A DNA stretch of 64,000 nucleotides from Balneolales bacterium (lineage in GTDB: Bacteria > Bacteroidota > Rhodothermia > Balneolales > HLUCCA01): positions 148,342 through 212,341 of the forward strand of contig JBGTBY010000031.1 of NCBI GenBank assembly GCA_041749075.1, in the 5' to 3' direction. Of the stretch, positions 12,766 to 52,374 are shown piece after piece. Made by a program: the position numbers and the translations under genes. The notes beneath the pieces were generated by a model, which saw only the letters and a program-made list of their open reading frames with translations, searched no databases and was not told the DNA's origin. Position 1 is the first letter of the stretch, and every line of letters starts with the position of its first letter.

Positions 12766-13581
12766 ATGGACTTTTTGATCGACTACTTCAGCACCATCTC
12801 TTCCGCGCATCGGGCGGCGATCTTAGTAGGGGGCATCACCTTTTTCTGGGTGATGGAAAGCGCAGTACCGCTGGTTCGGTTCGAGTACCGGAAATGGTCG
12901 CATGCGCTGATCAACTTCTTCTTCACCTTCACCACCATCGTGGTGAACTTCGCGCTGGCCTTCATCCTGCTATTAACGGCAGATTGGGCCGTTGGACATC
13001 AATTCGGGCTTTTCTTCCTCATTCCAGAGTTACCGTTTTGGCTGTATCTGTTGGCTGGACTGATGTTCTTGGATCTGATATCGGCGTGGTTTGCGCATTG
13101 GATCCAGCATAAGACGAAATGGATGTGGCGCTTGCACCTCATCCACCATACGGATCAGGAGGTGGACACGACGTCGGCGAACAGGCATCATCCGGGCGAG
13201 AGCGTCATCCGTTTTGCTTTCACGACCTTGGCGGTACTCATGTTAGGCACACCGATGTGGATGGTGTTTTTGTATCAGAGTCTGAGTGTGGTGCTGAGTC
13301 AGTTCAACCATGCGAACATCTCGCTGCCGTTGTGGCTGGATCGGGGGATGAGTTGGGTGATCGTGTCGCCGGACATGCATAAGGTGCATCATCATTATGT
13401 GATGCCATATACCGATTCGAATTACGGGAACATCTTTTCGGTGTGGGATCGGCTATTCGGCACCTTCATGACGCTCGAGCGCGGTAACATCACCTACGGC
13501 GTAGACACGCATATGGAGCCCGAGACCGTGAACGATGTGAAGAGATTGTTGAGGGTGCCGTTTGAGGGGAGGGAGAAGTAG
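12766..13581 (+). CDS. Sterol desaturase / fatty-acid hydroxylase family membrane protein
   Basis: His boxes HWIQH, HLIHH and HKVHHH. Multiple TM segments. Confidence 0.8.
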   Translation: MDFLIDYFSTISSAHRAAILVGGITFFWVMESAVPLVRFEYRKWSHALINFFFTFTTIVVNFALAFILLLTADWAVGHQFGLFFLIPELPFWLYLLAGLMFLDLISAWFAHWIQHKTKWMWRLHLIHHTDQEVDTTSANRHHPGESVIRFAFTTLAVLMLGTPMWMVFLYQSLSVVLSQFNHANISLPLWLDRGMSWVIVSPDMHKVHHHYVMPYTDSNYGNIFSVWDRLFGTFMTLERGNITYGVDTHMEPETVNDVKRLLRVPFEGREK

Positions 13582-13733
13582 ATGCTGTCCGCAAGCCTCA
13601 CTTAACATCGACGTTATGTGGCGATTCTGGATAATTCATTGTTCCAGATTACGTAGTGATTTCGGCTCGTAGGTTATTAATAAATAATCGGCTACGTCGA
13701 TTTGATAGGGCAATAAGTAACACTGTCCGCAAG
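13581..13733 (+). repeat. TGTCCGCAAG-element, locus A (two 10-mer copies at 13586 and 13724)
   Basis: GATGCTGTCCGCAAG...CCAGATTACGTAGTGATTTC...hairpin...CGATTTGATAGGGCAATAAGTAACACTGTCCGCAAG. Alignable end to end with locus B. Confidence 0.85.
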
Positions 13734-13749
13734 TTGATATAAACTCCAA

Positions 13750-15429
13750 TCAATTCTTCTCAACTTCATCGAGTTGAACGGCGACAGTCGACATCGCCAC
13801 ATCCACTGAAAAGCCCTCATTCGCCCCGATTTCTAGTCCGAATTCGGTGGTTGCGTATCCCACAAAGCTCACTCGCACCGTGTACTTCCCAGCTTCCGAT
13901 AGATTCACGACAAATTTTCCATCACCTTGTGAAACGGCTCCTCTCTGAGTGGTATCGCCGGTTTTTTTGATGGAGATGTTCGCACCCATCAATGGTTCTT
14001 TAGTACGGGAATCGAGGATTTGTCCACGTAAGAATGGGCTTGCCGCGTCGGTCTCAATCCGGCGTTGCTGAACCGAGATTCCTTGCTCAACGCCAGCAAC
14101 GGTTGGCAATCGAAACACTATCGGAACTTGAAATTGGACCTTCACTGGGCGTCCGCGCTGCATTCCGGGTGTGAATTTCACTCCGCTTATAGCTTCGATC
14201 GCCGCTTCGTCGCATCCACCACCAATGCCTCGCAACACTTTTGGCTCGGTCACATTTCCTTGCTCATCCACGATGAACTCGACCAACACACGGCCCTCGA
14301 TTCCGGCTCTGCGAGCGATTTCCGGATAACGGACCCGATCGAAAATCGCTTTCATGCCGCCAACGGGTTCCGGCATCCGCTCGACGACGATAAACACTTC
14401 CGGCGCCTCTTCAATTGGAGGTGGCGGTGGTGGTTGGTTGCTCGTGATGCGGCCCAATGTGAGGATTCCGCTGATGAGAAGGAACAGTGCGATCGGCATG
14501 ATCGCCGAAAAGCGAGTCGATGCAGGGTACGTGGTTTTCATGGTTTGAATCCGTTCGTGAATGTGTTTGGATGAGGTGGCCATCGATAAGACAACCGATG
14601 GTTTGGGTTGAGTTGGAGTGCCCACAAAGTCGAGCAATAAGGACGCATAGGATTTCAGCAGATCCGGACGCATACCGATCACATCCGCATCACAGGAGAG
14701 TTCACGATAGCGATGTAAGTCGCGTATCAACCGATGCACCATCGGATGGAAAATGAACGTCGCTTTGATGAGATGTTCCGCATATTGTGCTGCGAAATCG
14801 CCACGCCGGATGTGTGTGAGCTCATGGGATAAGATGAGGCGGCTTGCCAACTCGTCCCTCGTCTCCTCGGGGAGCACGATCACCGCGCGACGCCAGCCAA
14901 ATGTGTGGGGGATTGTGCCGGGGGAGGCCACCATCAGCCGGAACGGCTGCTTTATTCCCATTTCAAGGGCAATATCCGCAGCCAGCGATTGAAGCGATTC
15001 GGGCGCCGGCTTCAATTTGCTGGACCGATACACATGCAATGCGATGTGGTTTGCGGCGTGACGCATCCATCCCACAATCGAAGCCAACATCACGCCAAAT
15101 GTGAGCAGGCCGAGGGCGACGTACCAACTCCATCCGAACTCACTCGCATCAATGGGATCCACACGAACGACATCGTCTCCGACCACGATCAGCCAATCAT
15201 GAATCGGGGTTGCGATCAGAAATGACGGCGCTTCCGGAATCAGATTCAGAAGAAGAATCCCTGCGGGAAGGGAGGTGAGCACCGCATATCGCAGCTTGAG
15301 CTGGAGTTGCGGGTGACCCGACATCCGCCTCGCAAGGAGCAAGGAAAGAGGCGCGAGGAGCGTCCAGATGCCGACCGGCAGCCAGAAACGGAGAAGAGCG
15401 GATGACCCGAAATCGTGGAGGAATTCCAT
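13750..15429 (-). CDS. BlaR1-like M56 peptidase fused to TonB C-terminal and CarboxypepD_reg-like domains
   Basis: HELTHIRRGD zinc motif, Pro-rich linker PPPPPPIEE, TonB-C motif PEPVGGMKAIFDRVRYPEIARRAGIEGRV, and C-terminal LRGQILDSRTKEPLMGANI. Confidence 0.85.
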   Translation of the reverse strand: MEFLHDFGSSALLRFWLPVGIWTLLAPLSLLLARRMSGHPQLQLKLRYAVLTSLPAGILLLNLIPEAPSFLIATPIHDWLIVVGDDVVRVDPIDASEFGWSWYVALGLLTFGVMLASIVGWMRHAANHIALHVYRSSKLKPAPESLQSLAADIALEMGIKQPFRLMVASPGTIPHTFGWRRAVIVLPEETRDELASRLILSHELTHIRRGDFAAQYAEHLIKATFIFHPMVHRLIRDLHRYRELSCDADVIGMRPDLLKSYASLLLDFVGTPTQPKPSVVLSMATSSKHIHERIQTMKTTYPASTRFSAIMPIALFLLISGILTLGRITSNQPPPPPPIEEAPEVFIVVERMPEPVGGMKAIFDRVRYPEIARRAGIEGRVLVEFIVDEQGNVTEPKVLRGIGGGCDEAAIEAISGVKFTPGMQRGRPVKVQFQVPIVFRLPTVAGVEQGISVQQRRIETDAASPFLRGQILDSRTKEPLMGANISIKKTGDTTQRGAVSQGDGKFVVNLSEAGKYTVRVSFVGYATTEFGLEIGANEGFSVDVAMSTVAVQLDEVEKN

Positions 15430-15431
15430 GG

Positions 15432-15806
15432 TTAGTCGAGTTTTTGAATGATATCGTTGAGCGCGGCACGTTCCTCATCCGAAAGTGACTCCGATTCGGC
15501 GAGTGTTTGCACCAAAGCCATCGGTGAGCCGCGAAAGACCTTGTTCATGAGGTGGGACAGCAGTGTTTTACGGACATCGGCCGGGTCGATCGCCGCCTGA
15601 TACACATAGGAAACACCCGATTTGTTGACCTTGAGGAATCCTTTCTTGGCCAGATTCTGCATGATGGTCATGATCGTGGTGTAGGCCACGGACCGTACGC
15701 TGAGGATTCGATCGTGAACCTGGGAAACCGTTGCGGTTTTCAATTCCCAGACCACATTGAGGATTTCCATTTCGGTGTCGCCGAGAGCGAAGGTTGATTT
15801 GTTCAT
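15432..15806 (-). CDS. blaI: BlaI/MecI/CopY family transcriptional repressor
   Basis: 124 aa winged-helix protein (EMEILNVVWELKTATVSQVHDRI). Directly upstream of the blaR1-like gene. Confidence 0.85.
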   Translation of the reverse strand: MNKSTFALGDTEMEILNVVWELKTATVSQVHDRILSVRSVAYTTIMTIMQNLAKKGFLKVNKSGVSYVYQAAIDPADVRKTLLSHLMNKVFRGSPMALVQTLAESESLSDEERAALNDIIQKLD

Positions 15807-15812
15807 ACGAAC

Positions 15813-15841
15813 AACATAATACTAATGAGGTAGTATATCAA
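15813..15841 (-). promoter_or_regulatory. Candidate blaI promoter with overlapping dyad operator
   Basis: Minus strand reads TTGATA-N17-TATGTT, ending 6 nt before the blaI ATG. The 17-nt spacer contains the perfect dyad ATACTA-N6-TAGTAT (15819-15836), resembling BlaI/MecI TACTAC...GTAGTA operators. Confidence 0.5.
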
Positions 15842-16004
15842 GGGGGAAGTGGATGCTGTCCGCAAGTATCACTTAATAACACCGTTATGAGGCGAATATG
15901 GCGAATCTATAGTGCCAGATTACGTAACGATTTCAGGTCGTAGGTCGATTATTATCATGTGACTACATCGATTTGACAGGGCAATAAGTAACACTGTCCG
16001 CAAG
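15842..16004 (+). repeat. TGTCCGCAAG-element, locus B (copies at 15857 and 15995)
   Basis: GGGGGAAGTGGATGCTGTCCGCAAG...CCAGATTACGTAACGATTTC...hairpin...CGATTTGACAGGGCAATAAGTAACACTGTCCGCAAG. Confidence 0.85.
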
Positions 16005-16021
16005 TGAATCTAAACACCGTG

Positions 16022-17398
16022 CTAATTCTGCAGTCGGAACACGATCGGCATTTCCATATACGCCGGAATCGGGTACCCGTCGATGTCGAGGGCGGGGGTG
16101 AATCGTGATTGCATGATTGCCCTGACGGCCGCCTCGTCACAACCGCCACCTATTCCCCTGATTACCTTTGGATTCAAAGCTCGTCCCGTTCCGTCTACGA
16201 TAAATCCGACAACAACCTGTCCCTGGATCCTATTGCGACGGGCTTCTTCCGGATAATCGACCCTCGTGTAAAGCGATTGCATCCCACCAACCGGTTCCGG
16301 CATCTTCACAGGAATGGCTCCAAGTGGTTTTTTCATGATACGGGCTCCGTCTTCGGTCGCGATGACGAGCGAATCTCCGATTTCTGCCACATCATACACG
16401 TTGTTCGATAGTCCTTCCTCGAGTCGATACAAGGTGGCCCGGCCCGTGGCGGGATATAACCGAACCCAGCCATCTTCGCGAGTGCCAAGCAAGTGATTGA
16501 AGCCTGCGCGAACCCCATAGACACGCATTTCGGTTGGATTCTCACTGAGTTGATAGTGGGTGAATCGCTTCAGGTCTTCCTGGATTTTCACGATTCCTGC
16601 CAATGAGGAGGTATAGATATCATTTTTGAAGCGCACGATGCCATCTGGAAGTAGCTCGTGATGGGAAATACCCAGAATCAGATGGGCAAACGTGGTGTCG
16701 GGAAGAGTGTGTTCGAGGTATGCCGCACCCAATCCTCCTTCATCTAGCATCACCCATCTTCCATTCTTTTCAAATAAAATCGCATTCCGATTGTAGGGAA
16801 GCTCTTCATCCTGGTCGATGATCTGCGCCTCAAGACGTTCAAGATCCACATGAGCCAATCCGCCATTGAATCCGATGTACATTCCGGAATCGGTGGCTTG
16901 GCAGGCTTGGATGACCGGTGGCACCTGCTTCCCGTGCAGAAATTGCAACGAATCGATTGAACGAATCGCCGCATCCGTTCCTCTGATATGAAGCCAGCCA
17001 AGCGGAACGGGTCCTGCGATGAACGATCCTCGTGGCGCTTGTGCTTCCTTCAATCGTCGGTCTTCGGGATAGGATCCGACGGAAATCACCAAGCCATTTT
17101 CCAGGTCGCAAACGTGTCCGAACCAATCCGCTTCCGGCCAATCCATAGTCAACGGAACGGGTGGTTGATCGGATTTCTTCACCCAAACAGCACGATTCTC
17201 AACCATCACCAGAGTGTTTTCGATGGTACCCATTGAATGGATGAACCGATCAAGCAAGGGTTCGGATGCCAGCGTATCGATGGTGACGATAACCGGAACC
17301 TCGAGGGTAAACCATTCCGCGGGCGGCTCCGGTGCTGATGGTACGAGAGCGGATTTGCAAGAAACAAGGATGATGAAAAGCAGGGGGATGTATTTCAT
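16022..17398 (-). CDS. Lipoprotein with C-terminal TonB-like domain
   Basis: True start is probably [16 protein letters not shown] (lipobox) at 17398; the 79-aa His/Arg-rich extension in the track is unlikely. C-terminus [29 protein letters not shown]...[10 protein letters not shown] is paralogous to the BlaR1-like C-terminal region. Confidence 0.7.
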
Positions 17399-18117
17399 GG
17401 GGGATCGTGTGTTTTGGATGAATCGGCTGTAATTCGGTTCAATTCGGTCAGTTCTTTTTCGGTCATGTCGCGCCATTGTCCGATGGGAACATCCAGCACC
17501 AGATTCATGATGCGGACGCGCTTGAGCTTGACCACCTCGTAACCAAGAACCTCGCACATGCGTCGGATCTGGCGGTTCAATCCTTGTGTGAGGATGATGT
17601 TGATGCGCTTGGGACCAATTTGCTTCACGTCGCATGGCCTTGTCACGGTGTCCAATATCGGGACTCCGCTTCGCATCTTATTCAAGAATTCGGGTGTGAT
17701 GGGTTTGTCTACCATCACCACATATTCCTTTTCATGATGATTGCGCGCACGAAGAATCTTGTTCACGATGTCGCCGTCGTTGGTGAGAATGATGAGTCCT
17801 TCGCTTTCCTTATCCAGACGTCCGACCGGGAAAATGCGCTTCGGGTGCTTCACAAAATCAATGATGTTGTTCTTTTCCCGCTTCTGGTCGGTGGTGCAGA
17901 CAATACCGACGGGTTTGTTCAATAAGATGTAGACGGGCTTTTCTTTCGGGGGCGATATAGCGCGGCCATCTACCTTCACCACATCGCCATCGGTGATTTT
18001 CGTACCCATTTCAGGGACTTTCCCATTGATCGTGACTCGTCCTTGCTCGATCAGTTTATCGGCTTCGCGACGGGAACAGAAGCCGGATTCGGAGAGGAAT
18101 TTATTGATGCGGGTCAT
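17395..18117 (-). CDS. rluF: RsuA/RluF-family 23S rRNA pseudouridine synthase
   Basis: S4 domain [28 protein letters not shown]. Catalytic motif [19 protein letters not shown]. Start moved to the Met at 18117 because the upstream extension runs into repeat element C. Confidence 0.85.
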
Positions 18118-18133
18118 GAGTAAAGATACGGGA

Positions 18134-18495
18134 TGGGGGAGATGCTGTCCGCAAGTCAATCTAAACTCATCTCAAAACTCTACTTTCTGGGATTGAGAGT
18201 GTACAACTAAGTAATTAGATATCAATAGGATATAAAAAACATTGAATTTGTTATTTATATGGATTGAGTGTCCGCAAGTGGTTTTAGAGTCTAGCCTATT
18301 TATAAAACGCTGAAAGGATTTATTAGGATCGGTTTCCAGGATAGTACGGCATCAGTCTCGTCCATTATTCTATTTTAATAACAAAAAATAGCACAGATTT
18401 CGGAAAGAAATTACGTAATAAATTTGTTTCGTAAGTATAATAATAACAATGTAATACATTAATTTGACAGGACAATAAGTATCGCTGTCCGCAAG
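18134..18495 (+). repeat. TGTCCGCAAG-element, locus C (three copies at 18146, 18269, 18486)
   Basis: GGGGGAGATGCTGTCCGCAAG...GGATTGAGTGTCCGCAAG...GCACAGATTTCGGAAAGAAATTACGTAATAAA...AATTTGACAGGACAATAAGTATCGCTGTCCGCAAG. The last copy touches the stop codon of the next gene. Confidence 0.85.
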
Positions 18496-19467
18496 CTAAT
18501 CTATAATCCTATCCAATACACGCATGTTCGCGATGGCATCGGTGATGGGGATGGGGACCGGCGCATCATCGATGATGGCTTGCGAAAAGGCTTCACCCTG
18601 CAAGGTGTACATGTCGGAATAACCGAAACGAAGGACATCACACATCCCGCCGATCCTTACCGTCACGGTGCGCTCGATGTGATCCCCGGCATTATAGGGC
18701 ACATTCAATTCGAGGCTTCCTTTCGTGCCATAAATCACAGCTGATTGGCGATTTTCGAGCTGTGTGGAGCAAAGGATGCTGGCCGCACCATGCTCAAATT
18801 CAAGGATGGCGCTCGTCCAGATGTCGGTCTTGAATACTGGATCCCGCTTCACAACGGATCTCACTCCAACCGGCTCATCGCCGAATATCCATCGTGCCAA
18901 GTTCACACCATAACAGCCGATATCGAGCAAGGCTCCGCCGCCGATATCCGCCTGGTTCCTCAAATTCGCCGGATCCACATTGTAGTAGGTGAAATCGGTA
19001 TTCAGATGGCGCACATCCCCGATCCCGCCCGATCGGATGATATCGAACACGGCTGTCCATTGCGGATGAAACCGATACATGAACGCCTCCATCACCTTCA
19101 CAGTCGGACATCGCCGCTGCGCATCCAGCAATTGCTCCGCTTCTGTCGCCGTGATGGCAATCGGCTTTTCGCAAAGAACATGTTTTCCAGCCTCCATCGC
19201 CAAAATGGTATATGGCACATGCAAATGGTTCGGAAGTGGATTGTACACGGCATCGATCTCGGGATCGGCTAGCAAAGCCTCATAACTCCCATAGTGTTTT
19301 GGGATCCCCAGCTTCGCGGCCGCATCCTGCGCTGCCACCTCCGAACGTGACGATATCGCCACCACATCCCCATTCCGCATCTTTTGCATGGATGGAATCA
19401 CCCGCTTCATGCCGATATTGGCCGTACTAAGCACTCCCCATCGAACCCGTTTTGACTTTGTATCCAT
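18496..19467 (-). CDS. Gfo/Idh/MocA family oxidoreductase
   Basis: N-terminal Rossmann segment VRWGVLSTANIGMKRVIPSM and EKP motif (LCEKPIA). Confidence 0.85.
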   Translation of the reverse strand: MDTKSKRVRWGVLSTANIGMKRVIPSMQKMRNGDVVAISSRSEVAAQDAAAKLGIPKHYGSYEALLADPEIDAVYNPLPNHLHVPYTILAMEAGKHVLCEKPIAITATEAEQLLDAQRRCPTVKVMEAFMYRFHPQWTAVFDIIRSGGIGDVRHLNTDFTYYNVDPANLRNQADIGGGALLDIGCYGVNLARWIFGDEPVGVRSVVKRDPVFKTDIWTSAILEFEHGAASILCSTQLENRQSAVIYGTKGSLELNVPYNAGDHIERTVTVRIGGMCDVLRFGYSDMYTLQGEAFSQAIIDDAPVPIPITDAIANMRVLDRIID

Positions 19468-19612
19468 GCTTGAAAGTACGCATCTGTCCGCCGCTATTGA
19501 ATTATCCCAAAAATGGATTCATTCTGATGATGCGACAACTTGCTGTGTATGATGTGCTGAGTCGGCAGGTTGCGGCATTGATGACTAAATACAAATCCTT
19601 AAATTCTACTCC

Positions 19613-19987
19613 ATGATTCTGACACTCTTACTCCCAATCTTGCTAATGACCGGATTTGCCGCTGAGCCCGCTTCCGACGACCGTTTCGTTCATACGGTGT
19701 TTTTCTGGGTGAAAGCGGATGTGACCCAAGAACAAAAGGATGCTTTCTATCAAGGTCTATTGAAGCTCAAAACCATAGATGCCATCGAAACCGGTTATGT
19801 AGGTGTACCTGCTCCGACGAACCGGCCGGTGATCGATTCGAGTTATGAGTATTCCATCACCTTTGTGTTCAAATCGGCTGAAGACCAAGATGCCTATCAA
19901 GTGCATCCGGAGCATCATGAATTCATCGCCGCCTACAATCACCTTTGGGAAAAAGTGGTTGTATATGATGCGGTGTCACCTAAATAA
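19613..19987 (+). CDS. Dabb (stress-responsive A/B-barrel) domain protein with signal peptide
   Basis: 124 aa. Contains FVHTVFFWVK...GYVGVP...FVFKSAEDQDAYQVHPEH. Confidence 0.7.
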   Translation: MILTLLLPILLMTGFAAEPASDDRFVHTVFFWVKADVTQEQKDAFYQGLLKLKTIDAIETGYVGVPAPTNRPVIDSSYEYSITFVFKSAEDQDAYQVHPEHHEFIAAYNHLWEKVVVYDAVSPK

Positions 19988-19996
19988 ATCTTATCC

Positions 19997-20522
19997 ATGA
20001 AACTCATAGTCCTTCTATTGTTATTCATTCCGATGAGCGCGCAGGCGCAGACATTGCCTTTTGTGAAGGTGGACGGAAACCGGTTCGTGAATGAACATGG
20101 TGAAACTGTGGTGTTCCGTGGAATGTCCACATCCGATCCCGACCGTCTTGAAAAAGCCGGGGAAATGGAACAAAACGTACTTGCAAGCCGCCCGCGATTG
20201 GAACTCGAATGTGGTGCGGTTTCCGGTCCATCCTGCAGCCTGGCGCGAGCGAGGCGAGCAAGGGTTTCTGATATGGCTGGATGACGACATCAAATGGGCC
20301 GGTGAGCTGGGGATGAATGTGATCATCGATTGGCACAGCATCGGAAATCTGCGGACAGAAGTGTTCCAAGCACCGATTTACAACACCTCGAATGCCGAAA
20401 CCTATCGGTTTTTGCGGACGATCGCGGCGCGATATAAAGACATTCCGGTGATCGGTGATGAAACCTATGGCGAAGCGATCATCGGCTTTTTCAAGAAAAA
20501 GATGACCGAGCTGAATCGCTGA
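19997..20522 (+). pseudogene. Glycoside hydrolase family 5 (cellulase-like) remnant, frameshifted and 3'-truncated
   Basis: ORF 19997..20284 (signal peptide, FVKVDGNRFVNEHGETVVFRGMSTSDPDRLEKAG) continues in another frame in ORF 20091..20522 (WNKTYLQAARDWNSNVVRFPVHP...IIDWHS). The frame change lies at about 20157-20167. The reading frame ends before the expected NEP catalytic region. Confidence 0.6.
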
Positions 20523-20525
20523 TTA

Positions 20526-22146: not shown

Positions 22147-22156
22147 GAAGTATTAG

Positions 22157-22364
22157 TGTCCGCAAGTCCTCGATGTATTAATTCCGATGCAATAGAACCG
22201 ATTTTATAGGACGATGGTACGTGACAAATTGTGAAATGTGTGCAGGAGCCGGTTGACAAGCACAGATTCCACAGAGAAATTTCGTAATGATTCTTGTAAG
22301 TATCATTATGGTATTATTGAGGATAAGATTATTTGATAGGACAAAAAGTAACGCTGTCCGCAAG
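22157..22364 (+). repeat. TGTCCGCAAG-element, locus D (copies at 22157 and 22355)
   Basis: TGTCCGCAAG...GCACAGATTCCACAGAGAAATTTCGTAATGA...TTATTTGATAGGACAAAAAGTAACGCTGTCCGCAAG. Confidence 0.85.
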
Positions 22365-22384
22365 TCAACATAGATACCATGCAA

Positions 22385-23236
22385 TCAATCATCCAAAATC
22401 ACAACGGTCGCTCGTAGCTGATGCGCAGAAAAATACCCATACCCACCAATGATGTTCGTTGGGGCATTGATGGGTTCATTCGCTAGCGAAGCGATCAATC
22501 CTCCCGTGCGTCGACGCGCATCTAGGAATCGGTAATAACCCTCTTCTATATTCGACAAGACAACGATGACGGTATCTCCAGCCAGACCTGGATCCAGATC
22601 GATCTGTCGTCGGATTCGCCTTTCTTCAGCCACACGGTCTGTGAAAACCTCGCTGTGTAGCAAGAGATTCGAGTCTCGAAAAAAGAGAGAATCCAAATCA
22701 TCTCCTCCAACCGGCACATTGTACACATGGAGGGCGAAATAATTCTGTCCGACAGGATCATCAATAAAAATACGGAGGCGTTTCAAATCGAATACACCCA
22801 AACGTGTATTTTCATAGGTTGCGGTGTCGATGGAAATAGGTAGCATCCTCGTTGCTATCGCTTGTACCGACAGCCCGGTCGTTGAATCATAAACAGACAG
22901 ATAAACGAGTGATCCTGCCGCACTTTCTGGAGATTCACCACCGTAGAATCCAGGAATTCCTAGTGTTGGAAGAGTATCGGTTGTCAGTGAATTCGAGACC
23001 AAAATTCGTCCATCTGACACGAACAAGGAAGCGATTAAATCTTCTTCCAATGCATTGACAGATCGGCCGGAAAGTGGTGAGAAACTGCGAGTGGCGGTCA
23101 CAATCATGGTTTCGTTGTCTATCATCACACTCGATATGACCAAGGCTTCGTCAGCCGGATCTACCTTGAGAGGCAATTCGAATAGCTCGCATGAAGCGAG
23201 AATTATGACAAATAAGAATGGATAGAGTCGCATCAT
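22385..23236 (-). CDS. DUF4249-family lipoprotein (TonB-dependent-receptor partner)
   Basis: MMRLYPFLFVIILASCE lipobox. Sits immediately downstream of a CarboxypepD_reg-type TBDR, the usual DUF4249 context. Confidence 0.65.
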   Translation of the reverse strand: MMRLYPFLFVIILASCELFELPLKVDPADEALVISSVMIDNETMIVTATRSFSPLSGRSVNALEEDLIASLFVSDGRILVSNSLTTDTLPTLGIPGFYGGESPESAAGSLVYLSVYDSTTGLSVQAIATRMLPISIDTATYENTRLGVFDLKRLRIFIDDPVGQNYFALHVYNVPVGGDDLDSLFFRDSNLLLHSEVFTDRVAEERRIRRQIDLDPGLAGDTVIVVLSNIEEGYYRFLDARRRTGGLIASLANEPINAPTNIIGGYGYFSAHQLRATVVILDD

Positions 23237-25524
23237 TTGCTGTGAAATCGAAAATTATACGCGATGGATGGAAACACACCGAACAAGCCTTGCTGCATGT
23301 ATTCAAGGCTACTTCCGTTGGACCTGAAGCTGACTCTGTACGGCGCCGCGCGGTTATAAAAATTATAGGCACTCAAATGCCATTCACCTTGTCCATACTC
23401 TCGAAGGCGACCTTTGATGATCAGATTGATGTCCAATCGGTGGGATGAGGCCAATTCGATCGCATTTCGCTTGCTGTAAATAGGAACCAATTCGACGCCG
23501 GTAAGTGATGCATTCGGCATAAGGTATTGTCCCGTCTGGGCAGTCATATGGGCACCCGACATATAAACCCAACTCACTGACCAAAGCATGTTTTTCGATA
23601 AATCCACCATCGCAACAGCAGAGATGTTGTGTCTGCGGTCGAATCGATCAGGATAAGATTCGCCACCATTCAAACCTTCGAATTGACGATCCGTTTTGGA
23701 CAACGTGTATCCGATCCATCCGTTCGCCCACCCGCTGTGTTTCTGGATAAACAGCTCGAATCCACGTGAAAGCCCGTTTCCGCGCAACAATTCCGACTCG
23801 AAACGATCATTCAATATGAGTCGTGCGCCTTCTTTGTATTCAATGAGGTTTTCCATCCGTTTCGTAAACAACTCGACCGAATAGGTGATATCCAGCACCT
23901 TTTTGGATCCGAAATATCCGATACTGACTTGGTGGGCGGATTGGGGCTTCACATTTTCAGTAACCGGATACCAAAGATCTGTGGGAAGGGCGATGGCCGA
24001 CGACGAAACCCGATGCATGTATTGCCGCATCCGGCTATATCCAAATTTGATTGAATGATCTGCGCTGATCAGATATCGGATTGATGATCGTGGCTCGAAT
24101 CCACTATATGTCTTACCCGACCATGCCGACGAATACCGAATTCCATTCTCCATCCTCCAGCGATCATTCACATCCCAATCGACAGAGCCATGTAGTTCCG
24201 CTTCGGTACTACGGATATTGGGACTGTCAGAGGTTCCAATCAACTCCGAAATGTTTCCTGACGTGTTCACCACATTTGGACGAAATCCATGTGTCACCAC
24301 ACTTCCACCATATTGATATCGAAGTCCGTGTCTCGGGAAGGTTTCCCAATCCAACTTGATTCCGATGTCTTGGATTTTTGAGGTGATGAGAATCGAATTA
24401 TCGACGAAATCGCCTCGTATATCATAATTGAAGCGGGTTTGGTGCAAGGTGACATTCGAAAACGTTTTTCCACTTGCATACACATGGTTCCATCGAGCCG
24501 TCGTGATCCAATTCCCGAGAGTGAACCCGAAACCGAGGTCTTCTTCATTCTCGCTGCGGTCTTGAAAATTGAGGATATCATCTCCGAAATACGATGAAAG
24601 GTAGACGCGATCCGATTCCGAAATCCGGTAATTCAACTTCGCATTGACATCATAAAAATAGTAGGGAAGATCCACGTTCACCGATTTCAGCACTTGATCT
24701 ATATACGTGCGTCGACCCGCAAGCATGAAACTCATCCGATCTTTGATCAATGGCCCGTCGATCATGATACGCGATGTGAGCAAACCCACGCCTCCGCGCA
24801 CATTCCATCGTTCAAGACTCCCTTCGTTCATTCGGATGTCCAGAACGGATGACAATCGGCCTCCATAACGTGCTGGAAACGCACCTTTAACAAGTTGGAT
24901 GTCGTTTATCGCGTCTGTATTGAATACCGAGAAAAATCCAAACAGATGACCCACATTATAGATGACGGCATCATCAAGCAACACTAGATTTTGATCATCG
25001 GTCCCACCGCGGACGAACATGCCACCGGTTGCTTCATTTCCTTGGGTTACACCAGGCATGAGCTGCATCACTTTCAGGAGATCGGCTTCGCCAGCGAAGG
25101 ATGGAATTCGATTCACATCCGCGGGTTTGATGGAAATCGAACCCATGCGAACGGATTGAATCGCTTCTTGATGGATCCGATCGTCGGTGACGGTCACATC
25201 ACCCAGTTGTGTCGATTGCTCGACCAGCAGGATTTCTAGGATGGATGTGGAATCGGATAGGATTCGGATGTGTTTCGTTTCGAATCCGATATACGAAATG
25301 CGAACATCCGCTGGAATACGGGGAAGTGTGAGTGAGAAGAATCCGTAGTTGTTGGTCACGGTACCTCGACCACTTCCTTCATCCAATATTGTGGCTCCCA
25401 ATAGGGCTTCTTTATCAAAAGAATCATACACATACCCGCTGATGGTGACTTGAGCCAAGGTCACTTTCGTCACCCCAAAAGACATCAGAATCAGGAATGC
25501 GAGGAATCGGTTCATAGGCGCCAT
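23233..25524 (-). CDS. TonB-dependent receptor with N-terminal CarboxypepD_reg-like domain
   Basis: VTISGYVYDSFDKEALLGATI (CarboxypepD_reg-like). Plug motif GGMFVRGGTDDQNLVLLDDAVIYN. 763 aa barrel. Confidence 0.85.
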   Translation of the reverse strand: MAPMNRFLAFLILMSFGVTKVTLAQVTISGYVYDSFDKEALLGATILDEGSGRGTVTNNYGFFSLTLPRIPADVRISYIGFETKHIRILSDSTSILEILLVEQSTQLGDVTVTDDRIHQEAIQSVRMGSISIKPADVNRIPSFAGEADLLKVMQLMPGVTQGNEATGGMFVRGGTDDQNLVLLDDAVIYNVGHLFGFFSVFNTDAINDIQLVKGAFPARYGGRLSSVLDIRMNEGSLERWNVRGGVGLLTSRIMIDGPLIKDRMSFMLAGRRTYIDQVLKSVNVDLPYYFYDVNAKLNYRISESDRVYLSSYFGDDILNFQDRSENEEDLGFGFTLGNWITTARWNHVYASGKTFSNVTLHQTRFNYDIRGDFVDNSILITSKIQDIGIKLDWETFPRHGLRYQYGGSVVTHGFRPNVVNTSGNISELIGTSDSPNIRSTEAELHGSVDWDVNDRWRMENGIRYSSAWSGKTYSGFEPRSSIRYLISADHSIKFGYSRMRQYMHRVSSSAIALPTDLWYPVTENVKPQSAHQVSIGYFGSKKVLDITYSVELFTKRMENLIEYKEGARLILNDRFESELLRGNGLSRGFELFIQKHSGWANGWIGYTLSKTDRQFEGLNGGESYPDRFDRRHNISAVAMVDLSKNMLWSVSWVYMSGAHMTAQTGQYLMPNASLTGVELVPIYSKRNAIELASSHRLDINLIIKGRLREYGQGEWHLSAYNFYNRAAPYRVSFRSNGSSLEYMQQGLFGVFPSIAYNFRFHSK

Positions 25525-26216
25525 TCGATTCCGAAATGTGTGCCTCGTGATGTGCCTCTGAATCGGGACCCATCGATTTTCATGAGCCAGAGGGTTGGTT
25601 GCTGTTCGAGGAGGAGAAACGAATTTCGGGTGATTCGGAACCGCATTCCGAGCATGGCACCAAGGCCGAATTGGGATCCATTTGATGCGAAAAAGCGGTC
25701 AGAACCGTGACGAATCCGGCTTCCGGTTGGAAAACCAAGTAACAGATGCCCACCTAGTCGGAATGAGAAGCGATTGTCCGATAGATACAGGCGATTGTAC
25801 CCTCCAGAAACATTGAAGAATTGGTTTTGGGATCGGATTCGTAGTGTATCGGAGTCCACATTCAATAAATAAAGCGATGTCATGGATTCGGAACGCCCGA
25901 AACCAGCCCAGGCTTCGGCATTGGGATGATCGGAATTCTGGAAACGGAATCGGAATTGAATTCCACCCGTGGAATGCCTGGGCACGAGTGTGAAAAATGC
26001 AGCACTATCAGCAGGATGGAAAAGGATGGGATTTCGGGAATCCGCTACGAAATTGGAATATGAAGGGCCCCTTAGATCACCCTCAAAGACGGATAGGACC
26101 GCATCCGAGCCAGTCAATCTCCATCCACTTATTTGTGCGAAAAGAGGCGCCGGAATAAGGCAAGTTAGCGCAAAAACGAGTGTGACCGTGGTTGAAAAAA
26201 AGGTTGATCGACACAT
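25512..26216 (-). CDS. Hypothetical secreted, outer-membrane beta-barrel-like protein
   Basis: Likely start MCRSTFFSTTVTLVFALTCLIPAPLFAQ (signal peptide). Alternating beta-strand-like pattern. First gene of the TBDR-DUF4249 operon. Confidence 0.45.
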   Translation of the reverse strand: MCRSTFFSTTVTLVFALTCLIPAPLFAQISGWRLTGSDAVLSVFEGDLRGPSYSNFVADSRNPILFHPADSAAFFTLVPRHSTGGIQFRFRFQNSDHPNAEAWAGFGRSESMTSLYLLNVDSDTLRIRSQNQFFNVSGGYNRLYLSDNRFSFRLGGHLLLGFPTGSRIRHGSDRFFASNGSQFGLGAMLGMRFRITRNSFLLLEQQPTLWLMKIDGSRFRGTSRGTHFGIEWRL

Positions 26217-26322
26217 GTTGGCCTGCTCAAAATGAGCTATTGATCCCAAATTCATTCTTGTGAAGGGGCAGTATATTCACAATTCATCTGAAAAGCATAA
26301 GTTGCACACCATGATGCAACAT

Positions 26323-26427
26323 GCACAGATTCCACAGATTAATTACGTAATGAAATTGTGATGTAATTGTAATTTAAATAAATGTTTACGAGCATTTGAC
26401 AGTGGAGTAAGTAACACTGTCCGCAAG
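26323..26427 (+). repeat. TGTCCGCAAG-element, locus E (core only, one copy at 26418)
   Basis: GCACAGATTCCACAGATTAATTACGTAATGA...CATTTGACAGTGGAGTAAGTAACACTGTCCGCAAG. Ends 32 nt upstream of the yfcC-like ATG. Confidence 0.85.
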
Positions 26428-26459
26428 TCTACATAACAATCTATCAAATCGTCCTGTTC

Positions 26460-27941
26460 ATGAACTTCCCCACGCCGCACACCACCCTATTCGTCATCCT
26501 CATCCTCGCGGCGACGGCCACATGGCTCCTCCCCGCCGGACAGTACGATACCCTGCGTTACTCCGCCGAAGATTCGGCCCTTATTCTGAGTTCTCTCGAC
26601 ACCGAACGCCAGCTAGCACCTACCCAAGCCACGCTCGACAGCCTTGGCCTACCCACCCGCATCGCTCAGTTCACGAATGGTGAGCTCACGCGTCCAGTGA
26701 AAGTGCCAAACACGTATCGCAGCCTCGAACCAGCCGGCCAGGGCCCCATCTCGATTCTTTACGCCGCATTGAAAGGCACCTATGATGCCATCGACATCAT
26801 CCTGCTCGTCATGATGATCGGAGGCTTCATCCGAATTTATAACACATCCGGTGTATTGCAAATCGGCATCCAACATCTGGCATTGCGATTTCGTGGCCAC
26901 GAACGATGGCTCATCGTCATCATTGCGACACTGATGACCGCCGGTGGAACCACGTTCGGACTCGGTGAAGAAACCATCGCATTCTATCCGATCTTGGTTC
27001 CGATTTTTCTCGCGGCGGGCTACGACCGATTGGTTCCGGTCGCTGTGATTTTCGCTGGATCCCAATTCGGGATCATGGCATCCACGGTCAATCCGTTCAG
27101 CGTCATCATCGCATCGGACGCGGCAGGAGTGGCATGGGACAGCGGTATCGCCCTTCGGATTGCCATGCTCATTCTCGGATTTGCCGCGATTGTCTGGTAC
27201 ACCATCCGATATGCTGAATCGGTGAGAAAAAATCCAACGATGAGTTTGCTTTCTTTGGATGAGCGTGCGGATGCGCTTCCCTATTCGACCGACATCCCGA
27301 CTGACATCACACCCATGACATGGCGCCATAAAGCCATGCTTTCACTATTCGGATTGACGTTTGTGGCCATGATCGTCGGTATCACGATGTTTCATTGGTG
27401 GATGCTCGAAATGTCGGCGCTGTTTCTGGGTTCGGCCGTGTTATCTGGCATCCTACTCGGATTGAAAGAAAAAACACTCGTCCATGAATTCATTCTAGGA
27501 GCGGGCGAGATGGTTGGCGTGTCGCTCATCATCGGTTTAGCTCGCGGTGTGACCGTTCTGATGAACGATGGGTTGATCATCGATACGGTTCTGCACAGTG
27601 CGACAGGACTGATGGCCGGAATGCCTCAATCCGTGTTTCTTTTCGGACTCATTGTCGTGTTTTTTGTGCTGTGCTTTTTCATCACAAGCACATCCGGCTT
27701 GGCCTTGATCACCATGCCAATTTTCGGAGCCCTTGCCATCAGCAATGGGATTGCTGCCGAATCGATTGTGACGGCCTACTCCTTCGGCGTCGGAATGATG
27801 TTGATGATCGCTCCAACAGGGCTGGTGTTACCGAGCTTGGCGATGGTGAATGTGAAGCTTTCCACCTGGCTGAGATTCATCATGCCGCTGATCGGCATCC
27901 TGTTCGTGATATCAGCGTTGTTGATCGTGGTTGGAGGATAG
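26460..27941 (+). CDS. YfcC/DcuC-like anion/amino-acid transporter family membrane protein
   Basis: 493 aa with more than 10 TM segments. YfcC-like N-terminus (PHTTLFVILILAA). Confidence 0.65.
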   Translation: MNFPTPHTTLFVILILAATATWLLPAGQYDTLRYSAEDSALILSSLDTERQLAPTQATLDSLGLPTRIAQFTNGELTRPVKVPNTYRSLEPAGQGPISILYAALKGTYDAIDIILLVMMIGGFIRIYNTSGVLQIGIQHLALRFRGHERWLIVIIATLMTAGGTTFGLGEETIAFYPILVPIFLAAGYDRLVPVAVIFAGSQFGIMASTVNPFSVIIASDAAGVAWDSGIALRIAMLILGFAAIVWYTIRYAESVRKNPTMSLLSLDERADALPYSTDIPTDITPMTWRHKAMLSLFGLTFVAMIVGITMFHWWMLEMSALFLGSAVLSGILLGLKEKTLVHEFILGAGEMVGVSLIIGLARGVTVLMNDGLIIDTVLHSATGLMAGMPQSVFLFGLIVVFFVLCFFITSTSGLALITMPIFGALAISNGIAAESIVTAYSFGVGMMLMIAPTGLVLPSLAMVNVKLSTWLRFIMPLIGILFVISALLIVVGG

Positions 27942-27959
27942 TTAGGAGTGTATGTAGAC

Positions 27960-28166
27960 TGTCCGCAAGTGGTCAAACTGCCGATTCCGATTCCATATCA
28001 TCGTTTTTTAAGCTTCGTTTCTAGATTTGTTCTGTGAAAACGGTGCACGGGGTCTCGTTTTGTACAAATTCCACAGATAAATTACGTAACGATTTATCTT
28101 GTTAAGATTAAATATAATAATGAGTTGCGACTATTTGATAGCGCAATAAGTATGAGTGTCCGCAAG
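27960..28166 (+). repeat. TGTCCGCAAG-element, locus F (copies at 27960 and 28157)
   Basis: TGTCCGCAAGTGG...GTACAAATTCCACAGATAAATTACGTAACGA...CTATTTGATAGCGCAATAAGTATGAGTGTCCGCAAG. Confidence 0.85.
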
Positions 28167-28184
28167 TATCACTTTACTCAGCGC

Positions 28185-28988
28185 TTATCTCTTCAACTCT
28201 TCTAATTTCTTTGTCGCGAACGCCTTCATCTCGTCGTTCCCTACCTCAATCATGCGTTCATAAGCGGCGATCGCTTCAGGAATATTCCCGAGTTCTTCAT
28301 GCGACATTCCAAGCATGTAATAGACCGACCCATTTTCCGGATCCAGTCGAACGGCTTCCACCAAGTGCGGAATGGCCCGCGTATAGTCTCGATCCTGAAT
28401 GTGGCTCAATCCGATCACCGCTTTCGTGTTCCCATCCAGTGGGAAGGACTCGCTCAAACGTGTTGCAACGCTTCGGATATTCCGTGTGGGTGGATGTTCC
28501 ATGGCGATCCACTGTTGAAGGTGATCGTGCATGGTCATCAAAAACACGTCACGCGCCTCCTCCATCGGCTGATTTTTCTCCCATAACCACTGATGCTCAA
28601 AACGGTCGCTCGCATCCAGTAGATTCAGCATGAGGTCGGCCTGATCGTCGAAATACCCGCGCTGATTCATCGCGAAAATGGTTTTGAGCCACACGTCCAA
28701 GCGCCGCGGTTGAATGCCTACGGCCGTATTCAGATGCCGCAACGCCAATGTGAACAGCGAATCGGAACCGCTCCGGGAAGATCGCTCATAGTGAAAATTG
28801 AATGATGCCACATGCATATCGATATCATTCGGCGCAAACGTCTTCCATCTATTCAGATAGGCTTCCGTGGATGTGGAATCACCCTGATCAATCAGTTGAT
28901 ACGCGGTCTCAAGATCGTATTGAAGTTGCGCGGAAAGCGGACTCGCTATGGAAATAAGAATGAGAAGAAAAAACAGTCGGGATGTCAT
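28185..28988 (-). CDS. Tetratricopeptide-repeat protein with signal peptide
   Basis: Likely start MTSRLFFLLILISIASPLSAQ (the ORF extends to 29009). TPR-like AIPHLVEAVRLDPENGSVYYMLGMSHEELGNIPEAIAAYERMIEV. Confidence 0.7.
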   Translation of the reverse strand: MTSRLFFLLILISIASPLSAQLQYDLETAYQLIDQGDSTSTEAYLNRWKTFAPNDIDMHVASFNFHYERSSRSGSDSLFTLALRHLNTAVGIQPRRLDVWLKTIFAMNQRGYFDDQADLMLNLLDASDRFEHQWLWEKNQPMEEARDVFLMTMHDHLQQWIAMEHPPTRNIRSVATRLSESFPLDGNTKAVIGLSHIQDRDYTRAIPHLVEAVRLDPENGSVYYMLGMSHEELGNIPEAIAAYERMIEVGNDEMKAFATKKLEELKR

Positions 28989-29010
28989 TCTATCAATATA
29001 CCGACCCATT

Positions 29011-29117
29011 CTGCACAGATTTCACAGTTTTTTTACGTAATGAATCCTCTGTATAAGAGTAGTAAATACAGAATCATGCGACGATTTGATAGGTCAATAA
29101 GTATGTGTGTCCGCAAG
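29011..29117 (+). repeat. TGTCCGCAAG-element, locus G (core only, one copy at 29108)
   Basis: CTGCACAGATTTCACAGTTTTTTTACGTAATGA...hairpin TCTGTAT/ATACAGA...CGATTTGATAGGTCAATAAGTATGTGTGTCCGCAAG. Confidence 0.85.
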
Positions 29118-29145
29118 TCCCCTTTCTCCTTACTTTTCCCATCTT

Positions 29146-33064: not shown

Positions 33065-33065
33065 A

Positions 33066-52373: not shown

Positions 52374-52374
52374 C

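Follow-up and report, generated by a model that had tools for sequence, protein, structure and literature searches.

Thirteen exact copies of a 10-mer, TGTCCGCAAG, lie between the genes of one part of a 64,000-nt stretch of DNA (hereafter the window), and all of them read in the same direction whichever way the neighbouring genes run. What kind of element could give rise to such an arrangement, and how is it kept? We find that the word is the core of intergenic DNA modules that form an undescribed family, maintained by selection in one uncultured Chitinophagales lineage. The sites of this family mark the gain, loss or swap of short modules and gene blocks, most likely as targets of a recombinase encoded elsewhere in the genome.

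Distribution and orientation of the core

The count of 13 perfect copies in the initial annotation, and all of their positions (Table 1), were reproduced, whereas 100 dinucleotide-preserving shuffles of the sequence contained 0.22 copies on average and 2 at most. All copies are confined to 13.5–29.2 kb, as had been described. Tolerating one mismatch returned a single extra match, an unrelated one at 46012 on the − strand, and nhmmer searches with models built for the 125-nt module and the 34-nt site added no further or degenerate copy outside these limits on either strand. The intergenic placement of every copy also holds when gene starts are fixed by comparison with relatives: mechanically predicted ORFs overlap core C1 (17395..18159, TTG start) and core G (29107..30222, GTG start), but the conserved ATG codons lie near 18117 and at 29148, respectively. 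All four relative arrangements of flanking genes are represented around the elements, in line with the earlier remark that neighbour direction varies. Likewise, Pfam and NCBIfam scans covering window ORFs of at least 150 aa and shorter ORFs around the cluster detected no transposase, integrase or reverse transcriptase.

Table 1. Features of loci A to G, in window coordinates.
Feature	Position	Strand	Remarks
Core A1, initial site	13586..13595	+	left arm AAGTAGATGC; 4 nt past fatty-acid hydroxylase stop codon
Locus A type I interior, 128 bp	13596..13723	+	TATCACTTAAC arm, CCGTTATG and CCAGATTACGTA boxes, fixed spacer, ATTTGATAGGGCAATAAGTAACAC
Core A2, terminal, module-type	13724..13733	+	16 nt from stop of BlaR1-like gene (− strand)
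Core B1, initial site	15857..15866	+	50 nt upstream of BlaI start (− strand)
Locus B type I interior, 128 bp	15867..15994	+	
Core B2, terminal, module-type	15995..16004	+	
Core C1	18146..18155	+	~28 nt upstream of RluB-like start (− strand)
Core C2	18269..18278	+	end of degenerate short 123-bp unit
Module and core C3	18392..18495	+	boxes at −94, −75, −24, −10; core starts at 18486
Core D1	22157..22166	+	10 nt upstream of start of 161-aa gene (− strand)
Type II interior and core D2	22167..22364	+	module 22261-22354, core D2 22355-22364
Element E, single-core	26301..26427	+	hairpin GTTGCA..TGCAAC, 94-bp module 26324-26417, core 26418-26427
Core F1	27960..27969	+	18 nt past DcuC stop codon
Type II interior and core F2	27970..28166	+	CGATTCCGAT box, module 28063-28156, core F2 28157-28166
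Element G, single-core	29014..29117	+	module and core; core starts at 29108

The proposed strand lock stands for the window, where 13/13 copies are on the + strand, and fails as a rule, since a few inverted copies occur in the more distant relatives L138, L139, L141 and, in degenerate form, L135. The orientation of the copies is therefore a strong bias and not a rule. This bears on a possible reading of the sites as polar protein-DNA barriers or chromosome-organisation sites (e.g., Ter/Tus- or RTP-like fork traps, or roadblocks between operons), the orientation of which would be set by the chromosome rather than by the genes. Such barriers would be consistent with a ~10-bp core that is invariant and asymmetric, with its weak dyad arms, and with co-oriented intergenic copies near gene ends, conserved at orthologous positions. 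We nevertheless consider them very unlikely: the 13 sites in 15.5 kb form a single group in the window with no opposed group, unlike the geometry of fork traps, L138, L139 and L141 have inverted copies interspersed among the others, close relatives freely gain and lose sites, and the GC skew of the window shows no clear switch. A replication-oriented site in general is opposed by the same interspersed inverted copies, and by the packing of ~7 of the roughly 12–13 module-bearing loci of a related MAG into one 15-kb region.

Anatomy of the sites and units

Each site spans ~34 bp and consists of weak inverted arms, TAAGTRAYRC on the left and YnnCACTTA on the right, around the asymmetric centre TGTCCGCAAG. 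Across 70 sites from seven genomes the core is invariant and the consensus dyad of the arms is centred on its fifth base; in the site alignment, C is absent from the left arm and G from the right arm. Seven of the window sites bear a rigid 94-bp left arm, so that the 15.5-kb region holds 7 full and 6 minimal sites. The boxes of this arm are CACAGATTYCACAGA at −94, TTACGTAA at −75, ATTTGAYAGG at −24 and TAAGTA at −10, and those at −94, −75 and −24 are placed with zero insertions or deletions in 32 module-type sites from seven genomes. The initial annotation had recognized that the copies are embedded in larger alignable elements, and type I elements (10 copies from six genomes) and modules do align; the rigid box architecture had escaped it. 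Solo sites without any upstream boxes retain the same invariant 10-mer.

Direct repeats of the core bound ORF-less units of 123–217 bp. Immediately inside the repeats, type I units carry imperfect inverted arms at their ends, ATCACTTAA and TTAAGTAAC, whereas terminal inverted repeats are lacking in type II units; the interiors of loci D and F carry inverted copies of the CACAGA box, at 22229-22242 (degenerate) and 28032-28045, respectively. One and the same word serves as the 10–12-bp direct repeat at all loci, and most terminal cores are directed into the 3′ end of a gene. Core C3 abuts the stop codon of a GFO/IDH/MocA oxidoreductase. At the other loci, a BlaI operator-like palindrome lies between core B1 and the BlaI start, element E is placed between a conserved GGCAGTATATTCAC element and the DcuC ATG at 26460, to which the right arm of its core extends, and the 138-nt divergent gap between the starts of the TPR gene (29009) and the alanine-racemase-like gene (29148) is filled by element G and a 28-nt leader, the module being essentially the sole non-coding DNA between these two genes.

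Selection on boxes and core

Outside related Chitinophagales assemblies, which have it at the same loci, the family was not found, and this conservation at orthologous positions had also been missed at first reading. Among orthologous copies the boxes are 0.89–0.94 identical and the core 1.00, whereas the spacers are 0.53–0.66 identical and four-fold-degenerate sites 0.50–0.62. Since boxes and core are 89–100% conserved against 50–60% at neutral sites, they are under selection. In the distant genome L141 the core has changed in concert: all three of its sites read the variant TGTCCGCAAC, two of them at orthologous loci.

Selection of this kind raises the main rival to recombination sites, namely that the modules are portable cis-regulatory cassettes (mobile promoters or operators), the boxes and 10-mer of which bind RNA polymerase or transcription factors. 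The modules would have spread once by some route, and the host would now retain them to drive or insulate adjacent operons. Purifying selection on boxes and spacer length at each locus is what cassettes would show, as is the position of element E in front of DcuC. Further, because module, core and leader fill the whole gap at locus G, promoters must lie there. The left neighbour is a − strand gene starting at the module in 11 of the 16 modules with flanks examined, and reused promoters have precedent (PMC3575422). However, convergent genes, which need no promoter between them, flank modules A and F and several copies in relatives; most terminal cores face the 3′ end of a gene, and orientation is independent of the genes. 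Sigma-70-like, Bacteroidota −33/−7 and sigma-54 patterns all fail to fit, and the BlaI, DcuC, TPR and alanine-racemase-like genes occur, and cope, without the element in L137, L134, L139 and L142. Cassettes would also leave unexplained the invariant 10-mer of box-less solo sites, the direct-repeat pairs and the break points at cores. We regard them as possible, though unlikely.

Tests for conserved structure

Conserved intergenic blocks of ~100 nt with a fixed word at their end could also be small RNA genes or RNA regulatory motifs, an explanation that is hard to credit given the following results. Rfam returned 0 matches at the gathering score in the whole window and 0 at E<=1 within 13–30 kb, RNAalifold found no consensus structure, with 0 pairs in 32 modules and, among 10 type I elements, not one compensatory pair, and a single element folds no better than its shuffles (z = −1.2). 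The word, moreover, occurs in either transcriptional sense relative to its neighbours. The arms around the core are no more complementary within their own site (4.21 pairs) than with those of other sites (4.59), leaving none beyond the consensus, and the only long inverted repeat, that of the type II elements, contains uncompensated changes. The family is thus neither RNA nor hairpin. Its placement outside Rfam, REP/BIME, CRISPR and attC in the initial annotation agrees with the absence of Rfam matches and of hairpin and attC-core features. Single-strand mobilisation of the IS200/IS605-PATE or REP/RAYT type, which the annotation had put forward as one source of uniform orientation, is not supported, as arm covariation, consensus structure and favourable folding are all absent.

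Structural differences between genomes

Genomes differ in structure at the cores, another feature that the initial annotation had not noticed. At locus F, 27970..28166 is precisely missing in L134, L142 and L139, each of which has a solo core composed of the F1 left flank, the core and the F2 right flank. In the same way, a solo site in L137 replaces C1–C3 and joins the C1 left flank through the core to the C3 right flank, and locus D is a solo core in L134 and a decayed solo core in L137. At locus E, the right flank of the L142 core is the DcuC leader of the window, and on its left a different gene block ends. End points of rearrangement therefore fall within the core both in the solo/double alleles (C, D and F) and in the block replacement at E. 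Single genes also change place beside the sites: a gene for a 136–141-aa lipoprotein adjoins cores at differing places in the MAG, L137 and L138, and a 138-aa gene found on one side of module G in L134 is on the other side in L142. Much of the gene-content change among relatives is concentrated in the element-bearing stretch, between conserved flanks without sites, and a site-free block just downstream (30.3–36.0 kb) varies too.

Element B is wholly missing in L137 and L134, and L137 lacks element E as well. In L137 no core remains at either locus; the empty sites are clean, and their left junctions, CAAG (B) and GCAY (E), share no word. Such presence and absence at orthologous loci, including the coreless empty sites, would be expected of non-autonomous transposable elements served by a transposase in trans, either MITE-like elements with a sequence-specific 10–12-bp target duplication, or elements of IS200/IS605, IS91 or IS110 type that insert beside a fixed target word which also forms their own end. 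The ORF-less units between direct repeats of the core and the inverted arms of type I units also point this way, as do a 145-bp unit in L141 with 22-bp terminal inverted repeats starting with the core, and the head-to-tail units on one strand, which are expected if each unit recreates its target. Nevertheless, this explanation appears quite improbable. No transposase was found in the ~250 kb of related sequence examined, type II units lack terminal inverted repeats, none of the hairpins shows structural selection, the empty sites show no consistent target sequence, and the copy number is low, at about 12–13 module-bearing loci in the MAG. In addition, the copies are old, vertically inherited and undecayed, which would not be expected of dead non-autonomous elements.

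A proposed recombination-site model

We hypothesize that the sites are lox/att/res-like recombination sites with an enzyme acting in trans, a reading to which we assign a probability of about 0.4. The weakly inverted arms around a directional middle match the layout of a lox, FRT or att core, and the 94-bp arm of full sites, with four boxes at fixed distances, resembles the accessory DNA of res, cer or attP. The proposed recombinase, sequence-specific and encoded at another place in the genome, would bind the sites, and strand exchange would take place inside the 10-mer. Integration at an existing site would regenerate sites of the same orientation, and therefore serial events would build same-strand arrays whatever the gene direction, whereas recombination between two direct sites would remove the intervening DNA and leave one solo site. 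The solo/double and block events would then be enzymatic rather than slippage between 10–12-bp repeats. Probably, the modules also act as host regulatory DNA. No recombinase gene was found in the window, beside the other loci of the MAG or in the gene tables of L134–L142. Since gene order is largely unchanged across genomes in which ~40–50% of synonymous sites have changed, any recombination must be rare.

Several observations weigh against recombination sites. Purifying selection on every box at each locus fits host cis-regulation at least equally well, and perfect 10–12-bp direct repeats that are 123–340 bp apart can delete the DNA between them without an enzyme. Variable, weakly conserved arms around an invariant middle are the reverse of classical tyrosine-recombinase sites. 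Further, core-by-core exchange does not explain the coreless absence of B and E in L137, and the neighbouring variable block at 30.3–36.0 kb holds none of the sites.

Comparison with known systems

Like BOX, BIME/REP, ERIC and Correia elements, the family is lineage-specific, modular and strictly intergenic, with units of ~100–200 bp that are polymorphic in presence and may carry promoters. Unlike them, it has few, tightly clustered copies that lack a hairpin and a consistent terminal inverted repeat, are flanked by direct repeats of an invariant 10-mer and have been under long-term purifying selection at orthologous loci. REP/BIME sequences are short palindromic units that carry a conserved GTAG-type head and frequently alternate in orientation; by contrast, hairpin covariation is absent here, the window units are all direct, and no RAYT (Y1 HUH) gene was found in ~250 kb of clade sequence. 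The subterminal hairpins conserved as structure in IS200/IS605-derived PATE were not found either. PATE insert 3′ of a fixed short target without duplicating it and leave seamless empty sites; here, units come after a core and L137 has clean empty sites, with the differing left junctions given above. As for MITEs, which combine terminal inverted repeats with a target-site duplication, imperfect inverted ends are present in type I and L141 units and absent from type II, and the direct repeat does not vary between loci.

In the invertible promoter families of Bacteroidales, one global invertase serves many similar sites. These families likewise consist of short intergenic segments bounded by conserved repeats, with the enzyme encoded elsewhere (as proposed here), and the 145-bp segment of L141 lies between inverted sites; however, the repeats in the window and in close relatives are direct, and the sequences are unrelated.

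Tn3-family res, the Tn4430 IRS, Xer cer/psi and lambda-type attP combine a crossover core with ~100 bp of one-sided accessory boxes, at strict spacing with free spacer sequence, and direct repeats of such sites give deletion. They occur once per replicon or element, beside or serving a known recombinase. Our sites share the inverted arms, the asymmetric core and the fixed-spacing accessory boxes on one side, and differ in number (7 full and 6 minimal chromosomal sites in 15.5 kb), in that no enzyme was found, and in having the invariant part at the centre instead of in the arms.

Integron arrays (attC, including sedentary chromosomal integrons and CALINs) similarly have co-oriented repeated sites that bound gene units whatever the gene direction, ORF-less units, homogeneous sites within a genome and gene content that varies at the sites between relatives. 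By contrast, IntI was not found here (window ORF scans and gene tables of L134–L142), unit boundaries have no GTTRRRY/RYYYAAC cores and no imperfect hairpin, the genes are partly housekeeping and largely stable in order, and a rigid one-sided accessory arm is present. Integrons are rare in Bacteroidetes (PMC9024848). It is conceivable, if doubtful, that the family represents an undescribed integron-like gene-shuffling platform of Bacteroidota, with lox-like double-strand cores TGTCCGCAAG, a res-like rigid arm and a recombinase encoded elsewhere. Such a platform would capture, excise and reorder both blocks of single genes and regulatory modules devoid of ORFs, all within a single chromosomal hot spot.

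A cluster of identical cores in the window

The exact 10-mer core TGTCCGCAAG occurs 13 times in the 64-kb window, always on the + strand, against a mean of 0.22 and a maximum of 2 copies in dinucleotide-preserving shuffles. With one mismatch allowed, a single extra match appeared, unrelated and on the - strand at 46012. The shuffles rule out a chance origin of the 13 copies. The number, coordinates and single strand of the copies reported in the initial annotation were all reproduced by the exact search, and profiles of the 34-nt site and of the 125-nt module detected no further copy on either strand of the remaining 48 kb.

The copies lie among ordinary chromosomal genes of Bacteroidota (fatty-acid hydroxylase, BlaR1/BlaI-like pair, TonB-C protein, RluB-like pseudouridine synthase, GFO/IDH/MocA oxidoreductase, PAS histidine kinase, DUF4249/TonB-dependent receptor operon, DcuC/YfcC transporter, TPR protein, and alanine-racemase-like enzyme), and the flanks beyond the elements carry SecA, YidC, proB, and proA. 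As had been noted from the sequence, there is no integrase, transposase or reverse transcriptase among the window genes, the Pfam-blank proteins being without NCBIfam match as well. The window holds no tRNAs, no tRNA or tmRNA fragments were found, and an Rfam search gave no match at gathering score or E ≤ 1, which agrees with the earlier remark that the copies could not be placed in any named ncRNA family.

The GC content of the variable blocks at 18–26 kb is 0.46–0.49, compared with 0.51–0.55 in the flanks. In a separate low-GC region, it goes down to 0.435–0.44 around a C39-peptidase ABC exporter and neighbours without family matches, and this region may be an acquired bacteriocin-type island. 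The mutual overlap of three ORFs in this region points to frameshifts or wrongly assigned start codons in a DUF5687/ABC gene pair.

Positions of cores, module boxes and other features in the window
Feature	Position	Strand	Detail
Terminal cores	13724, 15995, 18486, 22355, 26418, 28157, 29108	+	each closes a module
Initial cores	13586, 15857, 18146, 18269, 22157, 27960	+	core and short arms
Box CACAGATTYCACAGA	-94 from core		CCAGA variant in type I
Box TTACGTAA	-75 from core
Box ATTTGAYAGG	-24 from core
Box TAAGTA	-10 from core
Type I interior	loci A, B		128 bp
Type II interior	loci D, F		~187 bp
Core number	locus C		3
Core number	locus E		1
Core number	locus G		1
Palindrome ATACTA..TAGTAT	15813-15841
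Dabb-domain gene and cellulase fragment	19613-20522
GGCAGTATATTCAC	26272-26285
Receptor, phosphatase and phytase block	30281-35946
Low-GC region	51700-58600
Overlapping ORFs	55155-55832, 55709-56542, 56368-57231

Anatomy of sites and modules

The copies are of two kinds, seven terminal ones, each closing a conserved module (a 94-bp left arm with fixed boxes), and six initial ones that have only the core and short arms in common. Initial and terminal copies pair as direct repeats 123–217 bp apart, with ORF-less interiors between them. Across six related genomes and the window, 70 sites give a consensus of ~34 bp that consists of TAAGTRAYRC, the core, and Y-n-n-C-n-CTTA, with a left arm nearly free of C and a right arm nearly free of G. 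The dyad is weak, with its midpoint at core base 5. Over 14 positions, arm pairing was 4.21 within the same site and 4.59 between arms from different sites, and the dyad is thus a property of the consensus rather than of single sites. Since own arms pair no better than foreign ones, they read as two predicted protein half-sites and not as a hairpin.

The boxes keep a constant distance from the core in all 32 module-type sites, with zero indels, though the 43-nt spacer is scrambled. These gap-free copies delimit putative protein-binding boxes, so that the binding protein should be directly findable by pull-down. The type II interior has a second CACAGA box, inverted and 13–16 nt left of the first, with uncompensated changes. 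A protein-coding function of the modules was rejected, as their AT-rich spacers have stop codons in every frame.

RNAalifold returned 0 consensus pairs for the 32 modules and no compensatory pairs for ten type I elements, and one element, taken singly, folded no better than its own shuffles (z = -1.2). In type I units, the stem of a small hairpin that follows CCGTTAT showed apparent covariation, but the pairing register varies among copies and the hairpin was discarded. The single-strand hairpin mobilisation proposed in the initial annotation is not supported, as there is no consensus fold, no per-site arm pairing and no compensation in the inverted type II box. Based on folding, arm pairing and covariation, a structured RNA or single-strand hairpin role is excluded as far as sequence analysis allows, and small RNA genes or RNA motifs are scarcely credible; this leaves double-strand DNA to which protein would bind in a constant geometry.

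Distribution and orientation in related genomes

When one genome per species was searched with the arm-plus-core pattern, the only positive was an uncultured Chitinophagales MAG (CAYPOI01) with 11 matches. Five of these share a strand on a single contig, which is syntenic with the window (82–86% identity) and has an ortholog of each window site. The MAG carries ~5 extra loci elsewhere among unrelated neighbours (CCA-adding enzyme, threonine-aldolase-like lyase, SIMPL, CheB/CheR kinase, and M50 peptidase), with no recombinase near them. Further relatives were found via the DcuC protein and their contigs inspected; seven more genomes (DcuC identity 91, 88, 86, 78, 76, 75, and 57%) have the family at the same chromosomal place, and one with 59% identity is without any site. 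JGI metagenomes gave 0 matches to the strict arm-plus-core pattern, and with a looser pattern (core-N180-210-core) a second metagenome scan picked up nothing but chance pairs and unrelated tandem repeats, all of them lacking the arms. Five viral-contig matches lack the arm boxes and were taken as chance, plasmid and phage collections gave no match, and a literature search for the 10-mer retrieved only unrelated primers.

Orientations were counted in synteny-aligned frames. The strand-locking claimed earlier holds in the window (13 +, 0 -), in MAG contig 32 (11 on one strand, 0 on the other), and in the related contigs L134 (7 +, 0 -), L137 (4 +, 0 -) and L142 (3 +, 0 -), but not in L135 (7 +, 1 -, the latter decayed), L138 (8 +, 2 -), L139 (5 +, 2 -) and L141 (2 +, 1 -), where inverted copies occur. 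That the sites act as a polar barrier seems very improbable.

All three L141 sites read TGTCCGCAAC. The first, like locus A, comes after the stop codon of the hydroxylase gene, the second lies upstream of RluB, as at C1 (the first core of locus C), and the third is inverted and makes a 145-bp inverted pair with the second. The same change at orthologous sites implies either that sites exchange sequence with each other or that they co-evolve with a single protein that recognises them.

Conservation of boxes and spacing

At four-fold-degenerate sites of the TonB-dependent receptor gene, identity to the window is 0.60 in the MAG, 0.62 in L134 and 0.50 in L137. Orthologous module spacers have identities of 0.53–0.66, compared with 0.93 for the CACAGA box, 0.89 for TTACGTAA, 0.93 for ATTTGAYAGG, 0.94 for TAAGTA and 1.00 for the core. 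Because spacer identity is about that of four-fold-degenerate sites and the boxes and core are far higher, we infer that the spacers evolve at a nearly neutral rate, and that boxes, core and spacer length are kept by purifying selection locus by locus. An apparent module turnover at loci C, F, and G, suspected from the scrambled spacers, was dropped, since four-fold-degenerate sites diverged equally. Decayed cores are rare, namely TGTCCGTGAG at the solo D site of L137 (one core where relatives hold a pair or triple) and CGTCCGCAAG in a few copies of L138 and L139. The orthologous copies are old and vertically inherited rather than recent insertions; a MITE-like or HUH-type mobile element is improbable. 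Even under the more cautious readings, the family offers a clean case in nature of low-copy intergenic modules strongly selected for box identity and exact spacing.

The module A spacer of the window (13724) shares 88% identity with its counterpart in the distant L135 (8598) and 70% with that in the close MAG (L007 1601), whose module A is nearer to module B (77–79%). The resemblance of MAG module A to B, and of window A to L135, suggests that modules A and B, which are adjacent and both of type I, underwent gene conversion in the MAG lineage.

Structural differences at the cores

The most informative result of the analysis is that structural differences among relatives fall on cores. Locus F is a double element in the window, the MAG, L135, and L138, and a solo core with F1 left flank and F2 right flank in L134, L142, and L139. 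In L137, locus C has one core with C1 left flank and C3 right flank, equal to the window minus exactly 340 bp, and locus D is a solo core in L134 and a decayed solo core in L137. At locus E of L142, the core and right flank (DcuC leader) match the window, and left of the core the end of another gene block (FG-GAP, DUF6851, Dabb, GH5 cellulase) replaces the module and receptor operon, so that homology with the window ends at the core. A 136–141-aa lipoprotein gene lies right of the F2 core in the MAG, between the solo F core and an additional module-core in L137, and between two cores after the TPR gene in L138; a 138-aa gene lies left of module G in L134 and right of the G core in L142.

Gene sets from the fatty-acid hydroxylase to the alanine-racemase-like gene vary widely among relatives, L135 having only RluB, DcuC, and TPR in this interval, each bounded by sites, and the flanks on both sides are collinear and site-free. 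The 15-kb stretch is therefore a hot spot of gene-content change in the clade. Contrary to core-based variation, however, L137 is without elements B and E entirely, with no residual core, and the variable block at 30.3–36.0 kb is site-free. This block (TonB-dependent receptor, PhoD-like phosphatase, and phytase) has no TGTCCGCAAG at its edges. Part of it only is present in L137 and L139, together with a pyrophosphatase gene, and it is absent from the MAG, L134, L135, and L138, where proB directly follows the alanine-racemase-like gene.

Two further arrangements were seen. The window's Dabb-domain gene and 143-aa GH5 cellulase fragment are apparently what is left of a longer block on the + strand (FG-GAP, DUF6851, Dabb, full 329-aa cellulase); L142 has this block intact, and the MAG, L134, and L137 lack it. 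L138 has two tandem type I elements, 71 bp apart, at 7553–7920 (cores 7553, 7692, 7773, and 7911), the right arm beyond core 7911 being a tandem duplicate (CGTCACTTCACTCCTCAAG twice); in the window, the BlaR1-BlaI operon parts the counterparts, elements A and B.

Recombination or regulation

Taken together, we tentatively hypothesize, with a probability of roughly 0.4, that these are site-specific recombination sites served in trans. Such a role would fit the directional invariant centre between inverted arms, the rigid accessory arm on one side, the direct-repeat pairs, the solo alleles ending in cores, the gene-block junction at a core, and the concerted L141 variant, and serial integration at an existing site would place all sites on one strand, whatever the gene direction. 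We go no higher because no such enzyme was found, gene order is largely stable, and 10–12-bp repeats can give rise to short deletions without any enzyme.

The main rival, a portable regulatory cassette, is rather unlikely. It accounts well for the per-locus selection, and the module takes up nearly all of the 138-nt gap that separates the two divergent genes at locus G, whose promoters must therefore lie in it. However, it leaves unexplained the modules between convergent genes, the solo sites that retain the 10-mer, and the break points at cores, and no promoter pattern fits. Sigma-70 and terminator scans gave match numbers below or no higher than shuffles, TAnnTTTG, the -7 motif of Bacteroidota, shows no enrichment (18 copies vs. 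~31 expected over 64 kb) and is found in none of the modules, and sigma-54 and ECF-type geometries did not fit by eye. Recombination and regulation are compatible, since regulation may have co-opted modules that arose by recombination. A DNA uptake sequence was rejected on copy number and clustering, and parS, iterons, and DnaA-box clusters on asymmetry, spacing, and weak match.

Two sequences beside the elements deserve mention in their own right. GGCAGTATATTCAC, upstream of DcuC, is kept with small changes in 7 of the 8 related genomes whose DcuC upstream was read, whether or not a core-bearing element is inserted (L142 is without GGCAGTATATTCAC); it does not match the textbook TAnnTTTG and is probably the native DcuC promoter element of the lineage. 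The palindrome ATACTA..TAGTAT between core B1 and the BlaI start is conserved in relatives and is likely a BlaI-type operator and promoter, independent of element B.

Comparison with known systems

If the sites are indeed recombination sites served in trans, they would give a phylum almost devoid of integrons a gene-exchange system of cassette type, with a site design unlike attC, that is, double-stranded, with a directional centre and a rigid accessory arm. In its working, the family has its nearest parallels in integron arrays and sets of res/att sites, but it cannot be counted as an integron, as IntI, the attC hairpin, and the R'/R'' cores are all lacking, and it does not fit REP/BIME, PATE, CRISPR or any Rfam family. 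Like BOX, BIME, and Correia-type repeats, it is modular and intergenic, but it differs from them by its low copy number, its clustering, its flanking invariant direct repeat, and its long-term selection.
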